The position numbers and the translations under genes were made by a program. Of a stretch of 31,957 nt of DNA, positions 2,373-12,766 are shown one piece after another. The notes beneath the pieces are model-generated. The model saw only the letters and a list, made by a program, of their open reading frames with translations, was not told where the DNA came from and made no database searches. Every line of letters starts with the position of its first letter. Positions within the stretch are counted from its first letter, which is position 1. Location: positions 1 to 31,957 of IMG/VR virus record IMGVR_UViG_3300036978_000226; one strand, 5' to 3'. The stretch is from a virus. Lineage: Duplodnaviria; Caudoviricetes.

Positions 2373-5300
2373 TCACTCCTTCAGCTTCAGCTTCATGGTA
2401 GCAGCCTTGCCGTCTTTCGTGAAGCTGCGCGTGATGCCCAGCGCTTTTTCGAAGTCGAAGCTGTGTTTTGCCCGGACACGCTTCAGTTCGGCGACGTCTT
2501 CCGGGGTCACAAAGTCCTCTGCACCTTCATGGTGGACCCAGTCGGGCATGATGCCGACCTTCTGGGGCGCAAAGATCGTGTCTTCGGTCCTTGCGCCACG
2601 GTTCGCCTCGCCATGGGGGCCGTAATTCAGCCAGCTGTTCTGGCCGCGCGTCTCGCTCGTCATCGCCATTCGGGCGAGGGGCGAGAACATGGACGCATGC
2701 GCCCGCCAAGCATTCTCTTCGCCGTCAGCGCGGAAGCCGACACCCTCTTTGGCGTGCCCGTAGTAGTCGTGGATGGCGCGGAAGACGTCGTTCACCGTCA
2801 CCGGTATGCCATTCCAGTGTTCACCGGTGCCCTGCAGCATGGGGTTCTTCTTGACGTCTTCGTCGGTGATCTCGCCGCTGCCGTACCCGGCGTATGTCGG
2901 GTAGACCCACATGTGGTGATTGTTTCGTACGTCCTCCACGGCAAGCCGGGGCGAGGCCTTGTACGGGTCTTCCTGCTTGCTGGGGTGCCAGAACTCTGCC
3001 TTGAACCCGGCTGCCTTGGCGGCCTGATATTGCGCCATCGTCTCCTTCGCCAGAGCGCTGTAGGACGCCTTGGTCAGTGGATCGTCTGGGTTGTCCGTCA
3101 TGGCTTCATATGCCGAAGCGATGCGCTTTGAGCGGCCCGGATCGACCTTTGCGTACTTGGTCGGCGGATTGTACGGCAGGCCGGACGACGCCATGTACTG
3201 GCGGGCGATCTCGCGAATGCGCGGGTCCGGTCCAGCCTGCAGCGATCCGCCAGTTAGCGGGATGCGGACGTTTTGGGGGAGGCCTTCGAGAGGTGTTTCA
3301 CCCTGTGACGGAAGAACGCCACTGCTTCCTCGTACTCCTCCTGCGACGGGAAGTCCTCCCGCTTCGGGGCGTGCCTGAGATGTTCCTGCGGTATCTTGTT
3401 GACCATCGGTCGACCCTCCAATTGATTTCTCCACGGTCCCGCCGCGCTTGAACGCGGTCTGTCCGCCAAGGACGCCCTGCTTCAGCTTGTCCGTCATCGG
3501 GATCGAGAACCCGGTGTATTGGTCCGACAGCGGCATGCTGCCCGGCTTGATGTCGGGGTCGTGCTGCTGTGCCAGACGCATGACACTTTTGGGCAGGATA
3601 TTGTCGTAATATCCCTTCATGCCCTCGCCGCTGTCTTTCAGGTTGTACCGATCCGCCTGCGCCTGTCCGGGCGTGAAGACCACGTGGTCATAGTTGCCCA
3701 TGGCGGCTTCGTGCAGGACGTTCTTCAGCGCCAGATCGGTCCAGTGCTGAGTGTTCTGGACGTAGGGTGCGGCTGGCTTCTTGCCGTTGTATCTCGCGCG
3801 ACCATAGCTCAAAGACCCCGCCTGATCTTCCGGAATTTTGTCGTAGGCATCCAACATCTCGACGTTGCTTGGGTGCTTGGAGAAGACCTCTCCGGTCTTT
3901 GTGTCAAAGATTTCGTACTGGTTCTTTGGGTCGTAGAAGCCATGCTTCTTGCCTTCCTGCCCCCAGTCGGACTGCATTTCCTCGACGTGCAGGACGCGTT
4001 TGTCGAGGCCGGGCTTGTTGTAATACGGGCTTCCGCTCCACCGCATCAGGCGGGAAATTGATGCCGCTTCCTCCGGAGAGATCACGCCCCGGTTGACGCC
4101 AAGTTCAGCAGAACCAGCGCCCAGATCGCGGATGCCGACACCCATATGGTCGGCAAGCTTTTGCATGACGGGGCGCATCTCATTGCGGTCACCACCCACC
4201 GTGCGATCACTCATGCGGATGTGGGCGAGGATGTTGTCGTTCTCATGCCAGTGGCTGGACACGTAGTCGTTATTGCCGGTCGCCGGAAGCGTCAGCAGGC
4301 GCTCCCGATAGTTGGAGCCACCCGGAATGGTGTAGCCCTCATATTCGGTCGGGCGCGGCTCGTTTTCGTCGTTGTACTCAGCGTTTTCATACTTGACCTG
4401 AGGCCCCTTGGTGCGGCGCATAAGCAGGTCGTACTCTGCCTGCTCTGCCTCGCTCTTGGGCTTCCCCCAAAGGGCATAGATGCGCTTCTCCTGCTCCTTC
4501 GAAAGGTAGCTGGGGTTCTCGCCGTACTGGTGGACCTCCATCTTCGGAAGGTTTTGGTCGAAGTGCTTGGCCATGTCTTCGCGGCTGATCTTGTCACCAT
4601 CAGGGCGACCAGCATGCTCAATCTCAGACGGCTTCGCGCCAAGCTTTTTGGCGGCGGCAATGTACTGGTCAACCGTACCCTTCTCCTGCGGCAGGCCCCG
4701 GATGATCTCGGCGGCCTTGGAGTAAAGACCGTGATCGGTGACCGTGCGTCCACCCTTGGAGCGCTCTACAGCACCACCATCAGCCTTGTTCATGTGCTTC
4801 TGGTTGGGGTCGAACTTGCCGTTGTTGTAGATCGACTTGATCTGCTGCGGCTCCTTCAGGGCCACCACAAGGTTGCCGCCCTGATCCGCCGGTATCCACG
4901 CGTCGTGCCCCTTGGCGCGCAGCGTGTCGAACCAGTCGGACTGGGCCGCCTTGTAGTTGTCCCGCAGGGTCTCAGGCGGCAGCGGGCCGGTGTACGGGTT
5001 CTCAGCCTTCACGTAGGCAGGGATGACGCGGGACGCTGTGTTGGTGGAGACCATGTTCCAGCCTTCGCGCTTGTAGCCTTGGCTGTCGTTCTGGGCGGCA
5101 TAGGACGACGCCACCTCAGGGTCTCGCGTGAACCATGCTCCATGGCGGCCCACGTTGTGCGACGTGAAGTCCTTGTCCTTGCTGGTCCCGGTGTAGAACA
5201 CGTGCGGCTCACCGTCGGTGTGGGTCACGCTGTTGCCGAACCAGTTGGCGAAGTTGTCGTTGTCGCCAATCCCGCCACCCTCAGCCTTGGTGATGTCGGG

Positions 5301-7217
5301 GTTGCCGGGGTCGAACGCGCCTTGGTTTCCGATGGCGCTCTTGATCTGGTGGGGCTGGAAGGTGACGTACTCGTTGGCGTCCTCAGCCTTGCCATAAATG
5401 TTCTCGGCCACGATCCCGTCGAAGCCCTTCGCTTGCAGGCTTTCTGCGACCTGCGGCGTGATCAGGTGGGGGAAGTCCTTGCTCCCGCCAGCGTGACGTT
5501 CGCGCATCTCCCGCAGGTTGAACTCGTCCAGAAAGAGGGGCGACTTCATGTGAAGGTGGACAGGCATGATGTTGTCGCCGACCTTCTTCCGGTTGTGCAT
5601 CTGCGGAAGGTTGCTTGGGTCGTCACCGAAGAACATGGCGGGTCCAGAGGGGCCATCCTTGTCAGCCTTGAACGTGCTGAAGTCACCGGATGTCCGGTGG
5701 TAGAATGTCTTCGGGGTGCCGTCGGAGTTCTTCACCGCATCGTCAGCATCCTGATGCCACGCAGCAAGGTTGGTCGCCCGGTCGCCGATCCCGCCACCCT
5801 CAGCGTAGCCATAGCGGTTCGCGGTCCAGCCCTGCGCCCAATCTGGGATGCTGTCACGGCTGTGGGACGGACCCCAGCCGCGCTCAGCGCCGACGTCGAA
5901 GTGCATGTTGTTGTCGTAGAAGCCGAAGCCCCGGAAGCCAGCGTTCCACGCAGCGTCAGCCAGCGCCAGCTTGTCATCTGGGGACCACCCGGTGGTGTCG
6001 ACGTCGAAGGCATTGCCATGGATGTGCTGGCTGCCACTAGCGCCACCCACTTCCTCGTTTTTCTTGGGGTCGCGGTATCCGCTGACGATGCCAAACTCTG
6101 GCCCGGCCCACGCGCTCTGCAGGCCGGACATGGCCTTGGCTGCCGCAGCGCTGATGCCCTCGCCATAGCCGTGCGGCTCCGCGTGCGCTGCGTGTGGCTC
6201 CGGTGCCGGTGCTTCATCCCCACCCTTGAAGAACTTTGCCGTGTCGGTGAGGCTCTGCATCGAGGCGAGGACGTCCGCTTCCGGCTGCTGCGCTTGGATA
6301 GGCGCGCGGGCCACGGCCAGCCGGGGCGTGTTCTGCATCATCGGGGCGGGCACGTATCCACCAGCCGCATGGACGGCGCGACCACCCGTTGCTGCGCTCA
6401 GGTGAGACAGGTGCGCCAAACGGGGATCGAAGCGGGCAAACTGTGAGCGGATTTTTGCGGGGTCCGACATCACCGTTTCCGTGGAGCGGATGGCATTTTT
6501 GGCGTCTGAGTGCCTGACGGAACCTTTTGCAGAAACCGCATCCGGAAACTGCGCGCTATCAAAACCTCTCCGGACATGCTCAGGGGTGTAGCCCTTTGGA
6601 AGAGGTGCCCCCATTGCAACATTTGATTTGTAAGGGGCGTCCCTGACGTCAGTCCTGCCAATGTTGGAAACTGTCGGGACAATGTTCTTCTCAAACGGGA
6701 CGCCTTTGTAGTCACGCTCCCCGTAGCGGTCGAGATATCGGCTTGCTGCTTTTGGGTTGTCTGTCGTGGAAATACCAGATGTGCCGGTATACCCCATGAA
6801 CTTTCCGGCTGGGTCGAAGCTGTCAGTGTCTTTGAGCGTGGAGTGGTAACCCTTATTGGTCATCCCCATCGCCTTAGCACGCTCCATTCGGCTGGCGCTG
6901 TCCATAGGCAGGTCCATACCCGTCTGACCCGTCTCATACAGCTTCCACAGGTGCTGTGGGTCAGCTGAATTCAGGTGATCATTCGTGATCTCTTTCTCAC
7001 GACCGTCGCGCAGCATACCGGCAACCGTCTCCGCTGCCGCGATGCCGTCATCCACCCGACCCCCGTCAGCATGCACGGCGCGGGGGACGTTCGGCATGTA
7101 CTTCGACGGGGCGATCTGGCCGGGGGCGCGTTCTTGCGCCTGCTTGGCCCGGTTCTTCTCCAGAATGCCGCCAAGGGTCAGCTTGGCAGCCCGGATCGCC
7201 TTGTCGATGTCGCTCAT
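2373..7217 (-). CDS. Large polyvalent protein (1614 aa): three ART-PolyVal ADP-ribosyltransferase-like domains, peptidase M15, EEMQSDW domain, C-terminal HDYYGH zincin-like domain
   Basis: ART-like motifs GYHST..IRSQFARFDP, FYHRT..GFDGIV..EYVTFQPHQIKS and FYTGT..GAWFT..PQQIKS. M15 motifs SGYRD..SQHIHGNAFD..HFD. Also VLHVEEMQSDW and FRAIHDYYGH..GEENAW..ETRGQNSWLN. Start overlaps the portal stop (ATGA). Confidence 0.85.
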   Translation of the reverse strand: MSDIDKAIRAAKLTLGGILEKNRAKQAQERAPGQIAPSKYMPNVPRAVHADGGRVDDGIAAAETVAGMLRDGREKEITNDHLNSADPQHLWKLYETGQTGMDLPMDSASRMERAKAMGMTNKGYHSTLKDTDSFDPAGKFMGYTGTSGISTTDNPKAASRYLDRYGERDYKGVPFEKNIVPTVSNIGRTDVRDAPYKSNVAMGAPLPKGYTPEHVRRGFDSAQFPDAVSAKGSVRHSDAKNAIRSTETVMSDPAKIRSQFARFDPRLAHLSHLSAATGGRAVHAAGGYVPAPMMQNTPRLAVARAPIQAQQPEADVLASMQSLTDTAKFFKGGDEAPAPEPHAAHAEPHGYGEGISAAAAKAMSGLQSAWAGPEFGIVSGYRDPKKNEEVGGASGSQHIHGNAFDVDTTGWSPDDKLALADAAWNAGFRGFGFYDNNMHFDVGAERGWGPSHSRDSIPDWAQGWTANRYGYAEGGGIGDRATNLAAWHQDADDAVKNSDGTPKTFYHRTSGDFSTFKADKDGPSGPAMFFGDDPSNLPQMHNRKKVGDNIMPVHLHMKSPLFLDEFNLREMRERHAGGSKDFPHLITPQVAESLQAKGFDGIVAENIYGKAEDANEYVTFQPHQIKSAIGNQGAFDPGNPDITKAEGGGIGDNDNFANWFGNSVTHTDGEPHVFYTGTSKDKDFTSHNVGRHGAWFTRDPEVASSYAAQNDSQGYKREGWNMVSTNTASRVIPAYVKAENPYTGPLPPETLRDNYKAAQSDWFDTLRAKGHDAWIPADQGGNLVVALKEPQQIKSIYNNGKFDPNQKHMNKADGGAVERSKGGRTVTDHGLYSKAAEIIRGLPQEKGTVDQYIAAAKKLGAKPSEIEHAGRPDGDKISREDMAKHFDQNLPKMEVHQYGENPSYLSKEQEKRIYALWGKPKSEAEQAEYDLLMRRTKGPQVKYENAEYNDENEPRPTEYEGYTIPGGSNYRERLLTLPATGNNDYVSSHWHENDNILAHIRMSDRTVGGDRNEMRPVMQKLADHMGVGIRDLGAGSAELGVNRGVISPEEAASISRLMRWSGSPYYNKPGLDKRVLHVEEMQSDWGQEGKKHGFYDPKNQYEIFDTKTGEVFSKHPSNVEMLDAYDKIPEDQAGSLSYGRARYNGKKPAAPYVQNTQHWTDLALKNVLHEAAMGNYDHVVFTPGQAQADRYNLKDSGEGMKGYYDNILPKSVMRLAQQHDPDIKPGSMPLSDQYTGFSIPMTDKLKQGVLGGQTAFKRGGTVEKSIGGSTDGQQDTAGTSQARPEAGGLPVAGGVRGSSGVLPSQGETPLEGLPQNVRIPLTGGSLQAGPDPRIREIARQYMASSGLPYNPPTKYAKVDPGRSKRIASAYEAMTDNPDDPLTKASYSALAKETMAQYQAAKAAGFKAEFWHPSKQEDPYKASPRLAVEDVRNNHHMWVYPTYAGYGSGEITDEDVKKNPMLQGTGEHWNGIPVTVNDVFRAIHDYYGHAKEGVGFRADGEENAWRAHASMFSPLARMAMTSETRGQNSWLNYGPHGEANRGARTEDTIFAPQKVGIMPDWVHHEGAEDFVTPEDVAELKRVRAKHSFDFEKALGITRSFTKDGKAATMKLKLKE
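3254..3406 (-). CDS. Putative overprinted 50-aa protein nested in the +1 frame of the 1614-aa gene
   Basis: GGAGG RBS about 9 nt before ATG 3406. Product MVNKIPQEHLRHAPKREDFPSQEEYEEAVAFFRHRVKHLSKASPKTSASR looks protein-like, while the host frame here is a low-complexity linker. Confidence 0.55.
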   Translation of the reverse strand: MVNKIPQEHLRHAPKREDFPSQEEYEEAVAFFRHRVKHLSKASPKTSASR

Positions 7218-9529
7218 TTTTCACGCTTCCCTTTGGCCTGAACCTGCATCGCCAGCTTCAGGATGTCGGTCTTGTGGTCCTGTTGCTGCATGTCGCGCTC
7301 ATGCTGCATCCGGACGGCATCGTTCATCTGGTCACGATCCATGTCCATCTGCTTGGACTGCAGGTCTTTCTCACGGTCCAGATCGCGGTTCTCGTCGTTC
7401 ATCTGGTCGCGGCGCGCAGAGATTTCCATCTGCTTGGCCTTGTTCTGCTCACCCATCAGCTTGGCCTGAAGCTCCATCGGGTGCGGGCCAGCTGGGCCAG
7501 CCAGACCCTGCGGTGCGGCGGGTTGCTGTGCCCTCGCCATGGCGGCCTGCGCCGTCATGGTCTTGGCGTCAGCTTCCTGTTTGGCGATCTTGATCTCCTC
7601 GATGCCCTTCATGATCTCAGGCGGCATCTGGTTGCGGGCGTTCTCAGGCTTCAGGAACTGCTCCGGGTTCGACCAGCCGATGGCCTTCAGGGCGGCCTTG
7701 TCCACGGCGACCTCGTCGTACAGGGCCGGGCTTGCCGCCTGCAGCTGCTTCAGGGCCATGATCTTCATGACGCGCTGGGCGTGGCTGGAGGTGTTCGGGT
7801 CGGCCTGAGGCACCAGTTCCACGTCGGTCAGGGCCTGCAGAAGCTTCTCTTCGTCCCACTGGACGCTGGGCTTGCGGTTGCGCTGCCAGAAGCTTTCGGG
7901 GTTCTCACGGAAGCACTTGACCAGCAGCGTGAACTCTTCGGCCTGAGCGGAATGCATGCGCTTGTGGACCGCGTTCAGTACCTTCATGGCCTGCTCGATC
8001 ATCGCCAGCGTCGTGCCGACCGGGGCGTCAGACCGGCCCTCGCCGACCTGAAGTTCGGAGGTGCCGCCAACGCGCATGCCAGTCTGCGCCATGTTCTCGG
8101 TCAGCGCCATCAGGGCGGAAGACGGCTCCTTGTACGGCAGCGGCATGATGGCGTCGCCGATCCGCTGGCCGCCCGTCTTGACCAGTGCGGCACCACCCGG
8201 CGGGACGCGGAACACGTTGGTGTTCTGGCGCGCGCCGCTGTCCGACATCAGGAAGCCGGGGAAGTTGGCGAACATGCCAGCGTCCAGAAGTTCGCGCCAC
8301 GCGGCGGTCACGGCGTTGGTGGTGTTGCCAAGGATGTGCAGCAGGCCGATATCGTAGAAGCCAAGACCCGGAACGAAAGTGTACTTGACGAACGTCGTGC
8401 GCGCTTCCGGCAGGGCTTGGGTGTCTTCATCGTAGTTGCGTACGATACTCAGGATTTCGCGGGACGAGATGTCGATGGTCACCCGGTACGGGATTTCCAG
8501 CCCAGACGGCTTGCCCTTGTGCTTGTGTTCGAACCCCTTCAGGTCCAGTTCGCAGTAGACCTCGTAGATTTCCCGGTCGCGGTCCTCAGGGTTGGACACG
8601 GTGACGGAGATGCCTTGCTGGGATGCCTTGGCTTCCTGCGCCGCGTCGACGGTGACCTCTTTGGGCGTGGAGAGTTCCACGTCGCGGTAGACGCCCAGAA
8701 TTTGCAGGCGCTTCACGGTCGACGGCTTCAGGGTCACCCGGTGCGTGACGCGCAGGGCGCTGGACAGGTCCGTGGCCTTGTTGTTCACGATCAGGTCGTC
8801 GGCATCGACACTGTCAGACGCCGGGCGGTTGCGCAGCGGGCAGAAGTAGACCTTTTTGAACGCGGTGCCTCCGAAGCCCAGCAGGAGCAGCATGCGGTCT
8901 GTGTCGGGGTAGTACTCGCGCGCCGTCGACGTCAGGTAGTGGTTCATGTCCTTCTCAAGGGCATCGGCCAGCTGGTCGCGCTCCAGCGTCGTGCCGTTGG
9001 CGTCGTCCCTGATCTTGACCGGGCCGTCGGTCGGCAGAAGCTCAGACCGGGCATTGGCTTGGAAGCGCAGCACGGCTTCCTGCAGCAGCGGGTGCCGGAC
9101 CTTGGACATGCCTTCGACCGGTGCGCCGTCAGCGGAACCTTGCACGCCGGGAAGCTCGATCTTCAGGCCCAGCAGCTTGATGCCCTGCGCCCGGTCGTCG
9201 ATCCATTCGGTGCGGCTGTCCAGATCGTCCTGCACGCCGCGCATAAGCTCTTCGGTGACGCGGGCCAGTTCGTCCTCTTCAAGCTCTTCGGCGAGGTTGT
9301 CGAACCAGCCCTCCGGACCCTTCTTGCCTTCGGCATCCTCGATGGGTTTGCCGTCGAGAGAGACCGTGATCGACCCGTCGCCGTGGTCGATGCGCAGGAT
9401 GGAACCGTCGGTGTCGAACTCAGGGACGTCGATGTCTTCGTCCGCGTGTTCTACGGTGACGTCCATGGGGGCGATGGCAGCCTCTTCCGGCTCCTCTTGC
9501 AGTCGGATGTTTGGTGACAGGCCGGACAT
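7214..9529 (-). CDS. Portal protein (P22/podovirus-like) with Q/M-rich coiled-coil C-terminal extension
   Basis: 771 aa downstream of terL. Motifs HPLLQEAVLRFQA, G.AFKKVYF, GFYDIGLLH, APVGTTLAMIEQ and VPQADPN are typical of this portal family. GAGG RBS. Confidence 0.88.
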   Translation of the reverse strand: MSGLSPNIRLQEEPEEAAIAPMDVTVEHADEDIDVPEFDTDGSILRIDHGDGSITVSLDGKPIEDAEGKKGPEGWFDNLAEELEEDELARVTEELMRGVQDDLDSRTEWIDDRAQGIKLLGLKIELPGVQGSADGAPVEGMSKVRHPLLQEAVLRFQANARSELLPTDGPVKIRDDANGTTLERDQLADALEKDMNHYLTSTAREYYPDTDRMLLLLGFGGTAFKKVYFCPLRNRPASDSVDADDLIVNNKATDLSSALRVTHRVTLKPSTVKRLQILGVYRDVELSTPKEVTVDAAQEAKASQQGISVTVSNPEDRDREIYEVYCELDLKGFEHKHKGKPSGLEIPYRVTIDISSREILSIVRNYDEDTQALPEARTTFVKYTFVPGLGFYDIGLLHILGNTTNAVTAAWRELLDAGMFANFPGFLMSDSGARQNTNVFRVPPGGAALVKTGGQRIGDAIMPLPYKEPSSALMALTENMAQTGMRVGGTSELQVGEGRSDAPVGTTLAMIEQAMKVLNAVHKRMHSAQAEEFTLLVKCFRENPESFWQRNRKPSVQWDEEKLLQALTDVELVPQADPNTSSHAQRVMKIMALKQLQAASPALYDEVAVDKAALKAIGWSNPEQFLKPENARNQMPPEIMKGIEEIKIAKQEADAKTMTAQAAMARAQQPAAPQGLAGPAGPHPMELQAKLMGEQNKAKQMEISARRDQMNDENRDLDREKDLQSKQMDMDRDQMNDAVRMQHERDMQQQDHKTDILKLAMQVQAKGKREK

Positions 9530-9546
9530 GCTGATCCCTCAAGGTA

Positions 9547-9578
9547 ATGGCTGCCCCGACCATATCAGAGGCAGCCAC
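9547..9578 (-). promoter_or_regulatory. Inverted repeat upstream of portal with an extended -10-like sequence in its loop
   Basis: Minus strand reads GTGGCTGCCTC-TGATATGGTC-GGGGCAGCCAT; loop contains TGnTATGGT. Confidence 0.4.
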
Positions 9579-9583
9579 TGAGA

Positions 9584-9919
9584 TCAAACTTCGTCAATGA
9601 TCATGTAAGCGCCAGCCAAGTAGTTGATCGCGCCCAAGATTTCCCGCTTTGCGGCCTCAGGGTTGCCGTTGTCCAGCATCCCCTGCGCCTCCTGCGACTT
9701 CTTCATGACCTGATACAGGCACCCGGCGGGGGTGCGCAGCATGCGGCTGATCTCCAGCATGGGCTGGCTTTCGAAGCGCTGCCCATTGCCGTGACGCTCA
9801 GCGCCCTTGCCGGTGGATGCCTGCTCCACAGCCAGTTCAAGCACCGCCCGCAGGACGTAGTATGGATCAGCTGTCGATGGCTTCGACTGGTCGATCTGGC
9901 TGCCCTTGGTATTTTCCAT
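9584..9919 (-). CDS. Conserved phage all-alpha protein (GKGAERH...REILGAINYLA family), possibly nucleotide metabolism
   Basis: 111 aa ORF with a recognisable phage motif set; start overlaps the 3' end of dcd. Function is inference. Confidence 0.65.
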   Translation of the reverse strand: MENTKGSQIDQSKPSTADPYYVLRAVLELAVEQASTGKGAERHGNGQRFESQPMLEISRMLRTPAGCLYQVMKKSQEAQGMLDNGNPEAAKREILGAINYLAGAYMIIDEV

Positions 9920-10361
9920 CGTACGATGCCTTGTCTGTTATGCTGTGGAAGACGACTTGGGCGATGCCGGTGCCCGCCGGAATGTGCAGCACCTGTCGCC
10001 CGTGATAGACCAGTTCCAGCGTCAGGAAGCCGCACCAGCCCGGCTCGATCACCGTGTTGAAGACGGACAGCCCGCGCCGCGCCCACGTGGACTTGTCGTG
10101 GACGACGCCGACCAGTTCGGGCGGCATGTGGAACTCTTCCACGGTGGACGCGATGACGAACCGCCCCATGGCGTACCTGCCATCCACCCAGACGCCAGCC
10201 CTGTCGACCGCGTTCTCCGGGTGGAAGATGACATCCTGCTTGATCCGGATGTCGTACCCGGCTTCGGACAGGCCCCAGCTGACGCCGTTCTCTTTGTGCT
10301 TCTGGTCGGCCATGTTCCTGATCGGGGCGTGATCAAAAAGGGTTTCTCCGTTGACGATCAT
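9867..10361 (-). CDS. dcd: dCTP deaminase
   Basis: Motifs GLSEAGYDIRI, HDKSTWARRGL, IEPGWCGFLTLEL, IAQVVF and YDGKYQGQ of the trimeric dUTPase/dCTP deaminase family. Confidence 0.9.
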   Translation of the reverse strand: MIVNGETLFDHAPIRNMADQKHKENGVSWGLSEAGYDIRIKQDVIFHPENAVDRAGVWVDGRYAMGRFVIASTVEEFHMPPELVGVVHDKSTWARRGLSVFNTVIEPGWCGFLTLELVYHGRQVLHIPAGTGIAQVVFHSITDKASYDGKYQGQPDRPVEAIDS

Positions 10362-10561
10362 CTGATCGACCTCAGAGCGTCATTGGCGATCCTGACGCAG
10401 CGCTTCACGGATGCGTTGGCGCGCGGGGTGTCGCACGCCAAGACCTCATGCAGGGCCACGGTCAGGGTGAAGCTGACCCGGCGCTCCCTTGCCAGTTCGG
10501 CGTCCTTCATATCGAGCAGGGCATTCAGTTCCCTTGCCTGTTTCCACGGGTTCTTGATCAT
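10358..10561 (-). CDS. Hypothetical protein
   Basis: 67 aa, translationally coupled to both neighbours. Confidence 0.65.
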   Translation of the reverse strand: MIKNPWKQARELNALLDMKDAELARERRVSFTLTVALHEVLACDTPRANASVKRCVRIANDALRSIR

Positions 10562-10884
10562 CAGTTTATGCTCCTGTTGGTTTCCCGGCGATGCACCCAG
10601 TCGCCATCAGCGGCGGACATGAACGCCATGGTGATCATGCCAAGGAAGCGCTGCGCCCCCTCCGGGTTGTCGAAGTAGATCACCACGCCTTTGTTGTCGG
10701 TGATCATCTTGATGACGTCCTGCGTCCCCTCGTCGAGGGCGCTCTTGAGGTTGACGCCAGCCTCAGTCGAGATCGACGACGTGTTGATGATCGCGACGAA
10801 CGGCATCAGATCGACAGTGCCCGGCGGCTTGCCGATGCCGACGGCGATCAGGGCGTCGTCGTCCCCATAGGTGAAGTAGCTCAT
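10561..10884 (-). CDS. Hypothetical protein (MSYFTYGDDD...)
   Basis: ATG 10884 overlaps the upstream stop (ATGA) with a GAGG RBS; 107 aa. Confidence 0.65.
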   Translation of the reverse strand: MSYFTYGDDDALIAVGIGKPPGTVDLMPFVAIINTSSISTEAGVNLKSALDEGTQDVIKMITDNKGVVIYFDNPEGAQRFLGMITMAFMSAADGDWVHRRETNRSIN

Positions 10885-11069
10885 TCGTTGGCCTCTCGGA
10901 ACATGTCGATGGCGCGCATGGCGGCCTCTCTCTGGGTCTTCGATCTGATCGTGTACGTGGCGCTGATCTCGCTGTGATCCCACAGGCCCTTGACCTCGAC
11001 CGTGTAGTAGATCTCCTCCTCGCTGTCGGTCTCTGGCGAGACGTAGGCGTTGCAAAGCACGCGCGACAT
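10881..11069 (-). CDS. Hypothetical protein (MSRVLCNAY...)
   Basis: GGGAGG RBS before ATG 11069; 62 aa. Confidence 0.65.
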   Translation of the reverse strand: MSRVLCNAYVSPETDSEEEIYYTVEVKGLWDHSEISATYTIRSKTQREAAMRAIDMFREANE

Positions 11070-11097
11070 GTGAGCCTCCCTTTTGTTACCCACAAGA

Positions 11098-11126
11098 AAG
11101 ATATGGGAAATCGTACAACTGGTCAA
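11098..11126 (-). promoter_or_regulatory. Sigma70-like promoter
   Basis: TTGACC-17 nt-TATCTT; the -35 overlaps the terL stop codon. Confidence 0.55.
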
Positions 11127-12766
11127 GCGCTGTACAGGGGCGTCTCGTTGTTGTTGCCGTGGAAGACCTGACCGTCCTCGATCTCCCGCATGCGCTCGGT
11201 GGCCCGGACCAGATGGCCGGTGACCCGGAGGTAGCTCAGGGCCATGCTGACGGTGTCGACCAGATCGTCGTGCGCCCCACGCGGGAAGCTGGCCGTCTGG
11301 CGGATCACCATCTCGGCCCAGTCCTTAGTCGGGGCGAAGACCATGCCCTCGCTGAAGATGTGCTGCACGGCATAGAGGCGGGACGTCTTGTCCAGCGTCT
11401 TGGGGTCGTACAGGATCACCACGATCCCATCGTTGGCGAACACCTTGCGAAGCTCCTGCGCCACGCTGTGACCGGCGGCCTTGTTCTCGATCAGCAGGAC
11501 GTCGACCTTCATGCGGCGGCACGTGTTGGCGGTCTTCTCGACAAGCTCTGCGAACTCCAGCCTGTCCTGCCACGCGTACATCATCATGGCCTTGGGCACC
11601 GGGCCGACGGCCTCTGAACTGTAGCTGCGGGTGATGTCGATCTGGCGTCCATACCGGTCGACCGACCGCGTGGACTGGCTCTCACCGTCGCCGCTGAACG
11701 TGCCCCAGACCGTCAGGGCGCTTGGGTCGTTCTCGGCCTTCTTGGTGTAGGCGGTGTCCAGAGACGCCACCACGAAGTCGATGTCGGGGTACTCTGGGCG
11801 ATCCCATACCTGCCACCAGCTGTCCTTGATGATGCCGCCGCCCCGTGGCTCCGGGGACTGTGCGTATTGCCCAGCGGTCGCGTACGGACCCATGGCGGCC
11901 TCGTCCCGGTCGACCACGTTCTGCGGGAACCGCTCAGGGAACAGAAGCTCGTCCCGCTCTGTGCGCGGGTCTTCATAGCCCAGCAGGGTCGGCGTGGCCC
12001 GCAGCGGGTCGTACCGCATCGGCAGCATGATGTGGTCGTACCCCATGTCGCTGTCGAGGATCACGCCCGACACGTCCCGCTCATGCAGGCGCTGCATCAC
12101 CACCACGATGGCGGACTTGTCCGGGTTGTTCAGGCGGCTGGTCACAGCTTCCTTGAACAAGTTCGTGGCGGTCTCCCGCTTCGCGTCAGAGTTGGCATCG
12201 TCGACGCTGTGGGGGTCATCTATGATCACCCGGTCACCACGGTAGCCGGTGATGCCTTCGAACGCACAGGCCTGCCTGAAGCCCGTGGCGGTGGTTTCGA
12301 ACTTGGCCTTGGCGTCCTGATCGCTGGTCAGCACCACCCGGTCGCCCCAGAGGCCCTGATACCACTCCGACTTGACCAGACGGCGCATGCGCAGGCTGTC
12401 GCGGATGGCGAGGTCTTGGCTGTGGCTGGCGCAGACGTAGCGCATGTGCGGCATGCTGCGCGGCCCCCACTCCCATGCGGGCCAGAACACGCCGATCAGC
12501 AGCGACTTCATGGTGCCCGGCGGGACGTTGACCAGAAGGCGGTTGTAGAAGCTGCCGTCCTCTTCGAACGTCACGCCGTCGGTGATCGCCTCCAGATGGG
12601 AGCAGATGAAGTCGATGTGCCAGCCGTGGATGTAAGGCTGGCCCGGCTCGATGATGTGCCAAGCCATCCGGACGAAGGCCGCCAGAGACATCTCGCAGCG
12701 TTTCTTGTTGATCACCGACAGCAGCGATGACGGGTCTATCGCGACCGGGAGATCAATCTTCCCCAT
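11123..12766 (-). CDS. terL: Terminase large subunit
   Basis: Walker A variant VNVPPGTMKS, Walker B GDRVIIDDPH, VVVMQRLHERD, nuclease motifs SLDTAY..DPSA, IENKAAG and FPRGAHDDLVD. Confidence 0.95.
   Translation of the reverse strand: MGKIDLPVAIDPSSLLSVINKKRCEMSLAAFVRMAWHIIEPGQPYIHGWHIDFICSHLEAITDGVTFEEDGSFYNRLLVNVPPGTMKSLLIGVFWPAWEWGPRSMPHMRYVCASHSQDLAIRDSLRMRRLVKSEWYQGLWGDRVVLTSDQDAKAKFETTATGFRQACAFEGITGYRGDRVIIDDPHSVDDANSDAKRETATNLFKEAVTSRLNNPDKSAIVVVMQRLHERDVSGVILDSDMGYDHIMLPMRYDPLRATPTLLGYEDPRTERDELLFPERFPQNVVDRDEAAMGPYATAGQYAQSPEPRGGGIIKDSWWQVWDRPEYPDIDFVVASLDTAYTKKAENDPSALTVWGTFSGDGESQSTRSVDRYGRQIDITRSYSSEAVGPVPKAMMMYAWQDRLEFAELVEKTANTCRRMKVDVLLIENKAAGHSVAQELRKVFANDGIVVILYDPKTLDKTSRLYAVQHIFSEGMVFAPTKDWAEMVIRQTASFPRGAHDDLVDTVSMALSYLRVTGHLVRATERMREIEDGQVFHGNNNETPLYSA

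Follow-up and report, generated by a model that had tools for sequence, protein, structure and literature searches.

Does an open reading frame (ORF) of 50 codons, lying out of frame inside a giant phage gene, encode a protein of its own, and, if it does, what might that protein do to the domain beside which it is encoded? The question is raised by positions 1 to 31,957 of the IMG/VR virus record IMGVR_UViG_3300036978_000226 (Caudoviricetes), a stretch of 31,957 nucleotides (nt) hereinafter called the window, which is a phage contig with terminase, portal and primase genes. The ORF is nested in the gene of a polyvalent protein, where a linker gives way to the C-terminal module, called here the HDxxGH domain. 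Judging from the comparison of related loci, we consider the nested gene almost certainly real. Its product most likely inhibits the HDxxGH domain, on its active face, a reading that draws on a modelled complex and to which we would assign a probability of roughly 55%.

A gene in the +1 frame of a linker

The first-pass annotation of this DNA had pointed out a GGAGG formed by the codons for I-G-G, followed by an ATG at 3406 that opens a +1 ORF of 50 amino acids. Both the coordinates and the peptide are correct; the strand, which had been left unstated, is minus for the GGAGG, the ATG, the nested ORF and the host ORF alike. The features on which the argument depends are as follows.

2373..7217, minus strand: host gene, encoding a 1614-residue phage polyvalent protein with a peptidase M15, two ART-PolyVal stretches and a C-terminal HDxxGH domain
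3254..3406, minus strand: nested gene in the +1 frame, 50 codons (ATG 3406-3404, TAA 3256-3254)
3415..3419, minus strand: Shine-Dalgarno (SD) sequence GGAGG, 8 nt before the ATG, supplied by the I-G-G codons of the host linker KRGGTVEKSIGG
3291..3407, minus strand: dual-coded linker, its host frame open but drifting, with G+C at the third host codon position falling within the overlap to 0.28 from 0.77 elsewhere
2451..3290, minus strand: HDxxGH domain, host residues 1310-1589, 280 residues, mostly helical, partial match to phrog_3170 (function unknown)
2754..2771, minus strand: HDYYGH motif

It had also been supposed that the host frame is G/S/A/P-rich filler over the same bases and that the ORF stands immediately before an HDYYGH domain. 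The former is true of codons 1-39, which overlie a G/S/A/P-rich linker, but not of the last 11, which together with the stop codon overlap the first residues of the HDxxGH domain (LEGLP..., from 3290). The latter is true of the domain, which adjoins and overlaps the ORF, but the HDYYGH motif itself lies some 480 nt further on (2771-2754). The GGAGG at 3419-3415 has an anti-SD pairing energy of -9.8 kcal/mol, and the whole host gene holds only one out-of-frame ORF of at least 50 codons led by GGAGG-N5-10-ATG. When the host gene was resampled synonymously, 17% of 1000 versions contained at least one such ORF anywhere, while 105 of 5000 contained it at this site; at a chance rate of 17%, the single sequence alone is suggestive and no proof. 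The other seven SD-led +1 ORFs in the window's long minus-strand ORFs gave no conserved family, with one exception, which overlies a conserved host domain and resembles that domain's shadow.

Related loci were gathered in two ways, by peptide search and by domain search. The domain-selected set comprised 288 loci, 267 of them with the whole domain and 300 nt upstream, and 161 remained after dereplication (<90% identity). A profile of the peptide found its match upstream of these 161 domains in the +1 frame 55 times, in the +2 frame once and in the host frame never; 24 of the 56 positive loci are seeds of the profile and 32 are not, and control windows further upstream gave 0/153 matches. In the domain clade with the window's closest relatives (the domain tree was built with FastTree only), the nested ORF is present in 24/24 loci, without the +1 stops or loss of SD and ATG that the first-pass annotation had named as telling against dual coding.

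The conserved core of the small protein spans residues 14-35 (PKREDF..QEEYEEA..FF.HR). Across this 22-codon core in 32 representatives chosen by motif, the ratio of nonsynonymous to synonymous polymorphism (pN/pS) is 0.34 in the +1 frame and 1.61 in the host frame, whose ratio within the domain core is 0.10; removal of the five codons fixed by the motif leaves 0.42 versus 1.51. In a clade chosen by domain alone, the linker has variabilities of 0.41/0.27/0.23 at the three host codon positions, and the domain has 0.33/0.29/0.63; variation in the dual-coded linker concentrates at +1 third positions. Between the window and one relative (L015), nine of 11 differences alter a host residue and seven are silent in +1. 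The sequences are related, and these selection figures are descriptive rather than independent trials. A host stop arises wherever a T precedes a +1 codon starting with AA, AG or GA; it was found at 0/186 such positions, with 33.5 expected, and the host frame is open in 32/32 representatives, with 11.3 expected.

The start signal recurs as well. A start with anti-SD pairing of at most -5 kcal/mol is present in 45 of the 55 nested copies, and when every upstream +1 ATG is counted, 25/58 pass this cut-off versus 13.5% of 1292 control ATGs; one subclade (L059, L064, L123) has no clear SD. Contigs of three other lake studies carry no indels in the nested region, and more distant contigs align only over ~3305-3370, that is, over the core. 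These alignments show that neither frame has been closed, that it is the +1 protein on which purifying selection acts and that this protein has its own ribosome-binding site; dual coding, as first proposed, is borne out by the two-frame comparison, and the comparative sequence data place the nested ORF far beyond chance.

The nested form is not the only one. Paraburkholderia sediminicola (L137) has an 84-codon homologue, led by an SD of its own, that ends 1 nt before the SD-led start of a free-standing domain gene, and the former host frame carries 4 stops; this un-nested two-gene form is represented by one case. The pair (L137:5569-6579) lies within a degraded mobile region beside a dihydrouridine synthase gene. 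A profile search with the small protein gathered 273 protein clusters. Among 138 short relatives, P14, E27 and F/Y19 are invariant, position 32 is aromatic in 135, R35 is kept in 110 and H34 in 80.

These data also bear on two ways of doing without a separate small protein. The +1 ORF might be no second gene, only a by-product of conservation in the host-frame linker or in a DNA or RNA element, a view helped by the 17% rate for a single gene and by the core being also an island of DNA-level conservation. We find it hardly credible, since it is the third positions of the +1 codons that vary, the host frame evolves at a rate above neutral, L137 retains the protein motif despite the 4 stops, and so many protein clusters match the profile. 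Very improbable, too, is that translation of a second product begins with the ORF and passes into the host frame by frameshifting or re-initiation, so that the domain is made on its own. The end of the ORF does coincide with the domain boundary (the stop lies between codons -2 and +27), and in L137 an SD-led domain start follows the stop of the small gene. However, none of the 55 nested copies has an SD-led start in the host frame at most 6 codons from the +1 stop, a slippery-type run occurs in only 11/55, and the position of the stop varies; on these grounds the idea was rejected, and it would also leave the residue-level conservation of the helix unexplained.

The small protein and the HDxxGH domain

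The domain has a dense set of invariant residues (R171, H174, D175, H179, E191, H198, E213 and Q217 in domain numbering; D175 is present in 160/161 domains), which looks catalytic and perhaps metal-binding. It has more than 2000 database relatives. Nothing significant was found for it in Pfam, NCBIfam or PADLOC, no match among PDB sequence profiles and none in PDB by Foldseek at E 0.001; an Atlas search returned only unnamed viral clusters. The best hit of a wide structural search had Z 3.4, and abylysin (4jiu_A), with Z 2.3 and a root-mean-square deviation of 4.6 over 92 aligned residues, is within noise. From these failed matches it does not follow that the fold is new or that relatives are lacking. 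Zincin-like metallopeptidases are defined by the motif HExxH, which is absent from this family; its two histidines, followed by EE in the next helix, merely resemble the zincin layout.

In all 44 peptide-selected loci, a set that was not dereplicated, the domain follows 101-134 nt downstream of the peptide match, which is in +1, and the host frame is open. The pairing persists across many phages and different upstream architectures, and the type of partner follows the domain tree: two further +1 families occupy the same place in other domain clades (22/161 and 20/161, with 18 and 11 loci of this set as seeds of their profiles). With all three families pooled, a partner is detectable beside 96/161 domains and none beside 65/161. 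Among ~397 Burkholderiaceae genomes scored, the domain occurs in 4, and the peptide stands beside it in all 3 close copies. The first-pass idea that peptide and effector domain travel as one cassette is upheld by this reciprocal co-occurrence and by the un-nested two-gene version, with the reservation that the coupling is not universal. Three weak matches to the small family in the Burkholderiaceae were set aside: two are readable in frame (L344, L345) and represent scaffold-like or in-frame motifs, not partners. Near position 3030 of L035, a host-frame stop lies a few codons into the domain, just past the end of the nested gene, and is either an error or the sign of a broken gene.

Prediction of the complex of peptide and domain gave a score of 0.86, against 0.33 for the best of 3 controls and 0.16 when the domain was replaced; the score mark is reached by 116/157 solved complexes and 2/215 mismatched pairs, counts that hold only roughly with own alignments. 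The runs agree in at least 87% of contacts, with a predicted local distance difference test (pLDDT) value of at least 70 for the partner. In the model, helix 24-42 of the peptide lies against invariant residues of the domain, with contacts that include the invariant Y110, P114, N167, R171, F186, E191, E213 and Q217; peptide residues 27-35 are predicted to touch F186, R187, E191, R171, Y110, P114 and Q217. No like complex was found by sequence and fold search, so that recall of a solved structure by the predictor is unlikely. Going by the model, the small protein probably does bind the adjacent domain, and the partner role suggested in the first-pass annotation is to this extent supported, even if not every domain has such a partner.

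Two readings compete for what this position means. The product of a real gene might target a host factor or another phage factor, and its place might reflect inheritance and the free SD that GG linkers are able to supply; most database members of the family have no known context, and inheritance alone explains why partner type follows the domain tree. This seems improbable to us: among the xxGG linkers of the host gene, GGAGG plus ATG is used only before the HDxxGH domain, the pairing outlasts changes of upstream architecture and un-nesting in L137, and the complex scores far above its controls, including the one with the domain replaced. Alternatively, the product may bind the domain as a folding chaperone, a packaging adaptor or an activating subunit rather than as an inhibitor. 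All of the conservation and complex evidence is compatible with such a role, the N-terminal half of the motif recurs in scaffold-like phage proteins, a 4665-codon ORF carries it in frame, and partnerless domains exist. We nevertheless hold it to be unlikely, though to be taken seriously, as the predicted contacts are on invariant residues and not on a variable surface. The domain alone is, moreover, modelled confidently (pLDDT 92), which, along with the many partnerless copies, indicates that the partner is not universally needed for folding.

Several observations weigh against inhibition as well. The 65 domains with no detectable partner nearby still keep their conserved residues; in five genomes with the domain and no adjacent small family, no match was found elsewhere (0/5); and there was no partner match at Colt gp97, the sole mycobacteriophage copy checked. 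Chromosomal copies of the domain in an operon with AdoHcyase-like and DUF3293 genes have no small-family match either, and the domain, judging from these distant copies, need not be toxic. In the predicted complex, H174, D175 and H179 are outside the confident contacts, and H34 of the peptide is kept in just 80 of the 138 relatives; for the latter reason, the idea of a universal histidine switch was dropped.

With inhibition as the preferred reading, the following course of events might be imagined. A single late mRNA would be translated into both the polyprotein and the small protein; the latter would cover the conserved pocket of the domain, so that the domain stays inactive in the producing cell. 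After packaging of the polyprotein and its injection, the inhibitor would be missing, and the domain would be free to act in the new host. Packaging in the virion and injection have been proposed for polyvalent proteins in the passages of PMC5512222 that concern them, and the late-gene position fits. Nesting in the linker may keep inhibitor and domain together while modules are shuffled between polyproteins.

Relatives, neighbours and other nested frames

In the window, the host gene is preceded by late genes:

7214..12766, minus strand: upstream late genes, with the portal at 7214-9529 and the terminase large subunit at 11123-12766

Portal and terminase upstream place the host gene in the virion module. 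It matches ART-PolyVal (E 2e-34) and peptidase M15 (E 7e-12), and xxGG linkers part its modules; as is typical of polyvalent proteins, its product combines several unlike enzyme modules in a single chain, and the gene lies close to late virion genes. In both giant genes of the window (7217-2373 and 2368-2), the modules are parted by recurring xAxGG or KxGG linkers, possibly protease cleavage sites.

The small protein matched no Pfam, PHROGs, NCBIfam or PADLOC family, and 54/55 of its longer relatives had no Pfam match. Long phage proteins of scaffold-like type and the 4665-codon ORF, the latter in frame, contain the N-terminal half of its motif (L344, L345, P0215, P0268) and are a possible source of the nested gene. 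P0279 (Sphingomonas sp. RB1R13) is an in-frame fusion of the motif with a DUF3293 stretch, and distant HDxxGH domains also have DUF3293 fused to them or next to them. Gammaproteobacterial chromosomal copies of the domain (L165:1837-4308, L168:1784-4120) lie between an AdoHcyase-like NAD-binding gene and DUF3293, neighbours that hint at a possible nucleoside- or S-adenosylmethionine-related activity. A distant copy of the domain (~32% identity), represented by gp97 of Mycobacterium phage Colt (L177), is common among cultured mycobacteriophages, with ~200 records.

As for the two further +1 families, one shares the ending E..A-aromatic-.-K-H-R with the small protein (hhalign E 0.003); with an hhalign probability of 11%, their kinship is uncertain. 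Identity in the first further family is about equal in the two frames, 0.42 in +1 versus 0.39 in the host frame, and in the second it is 0.63 versus 0.40. Another conserved +1 nested family, a cluster of 7 with the motif LTR.AYL.L.F, overlaps the tail end of a different, downstream polyvalent gene:

L099:2606-2713, L101:5360-5581, L102:5381-5590 and L106:3280-3627: nested family with the LTR.AYL.L.F motif

A similar motif precedes the HDxxGH domain in L175. Four database proteins (P0234, P0235, P0252, P0267) join the LTR.AYL.L.F motif to the small peptide, and five (P0168, P0174, P0192, P0233, P0257) join it to further recurring short motifs, such fusions suggesting that nested peptides are modular.

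Comparison with known systems

Two-component spanins such as lambda Rz/Rz1 are complex-forming gene pairs known in embedded, overlapped and separated architectures, as set out in the relevant passages of PMC6139136. Embedded (55 copies) and separated (L137) forms both occur here too. Unlike spanins, which are membrane proteins for lysis, the small peptide has no membrane or lipoprotein features (neither a cysteine nor a hydrophobic segment among its 50 residues), and it is matched to one module of a multi-module polyprotein, the host frame being a linker. Scans against Pfam and PHROGs gave no spanin family; the pair is not a spanin.

The host protein itself resembles the polyvalent proteins described in part of Iyer et al. 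2017 (PMC5512222) in its ART-PolyVal and peptidase modules, its portal and terminase vicinity and the InPase domain encoded by the next gene. It differs in that the passages on polyvalent proteins in this defining paper mention no cognate partner genes and name no cognate inhibitors; its main text contains neither 'overlap' nor 'linker', while its supplements may list the HDxxGH domain.

Closer in predicted function are type II toxin-antitoxin and polymorphic toxin-immunity pairs, in which, as here, a small acidic partner gene stands beside an enzyme-like domain and its product, in our model, would cover a conserved site. In the classic toxin-antitoxin layout, the small gene comes first and is coupled to the second, and L137 matches this. 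Unlike in such pairs, the partner gene lies inside the ORF that bears the putative toxin, and its product has no DNA-binding domain, at least none among Pfam families. The modelled function would resemble that of an antitoxin, with coupling of 44/44 from peptide to domain and of 56/161, or 96/161 with the two further families, from domain to peptide; the 65 partnerless domains argue against an obligatory antitoxin. Another parallel is comS, which encodes a small regulatory peptide and is likewise nested out of frame in a giant multi-module gene, Bacillus srfAB. The pathway that ComS regulates is an unrelated one, whereas the predicted target here is the adjacent module of the host protein.

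No earlier description of this arrangement was found in the literature searched, most subscription papers being outside its reach. It is tempting to suppose, though we do so tentatively, that the linkers of polyvalent proteins hold a hidden layer of genes, in which cognate +1 immunity peptides, one per dangerous module, would shuffle with their effectors as cassettes. The effector domain considered here, with no known fold match and paired with three clade-specific peptide families, would be one such case, and modules of nested peptides may fuse into poly-inhibitor chains.

Annotation misses the nested gene, as in the GenBank tables of both carrier records checked, from which it is absent. One gene family is seen here in both nested and free-standing form. 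An unnamed enzyme-like domain becomes available along with what is likely its specific inhibitor, so that cloning and assaying the two is practicable; cultured carriers such as Synechococcus phage MinM2 (OQ594354) exist, making the idea directly testable. Polyvalent proteins are thought to be injected enzyme cocktails, and a nested inhibitor, if true, would explain how the producing cell survives their synthesis.
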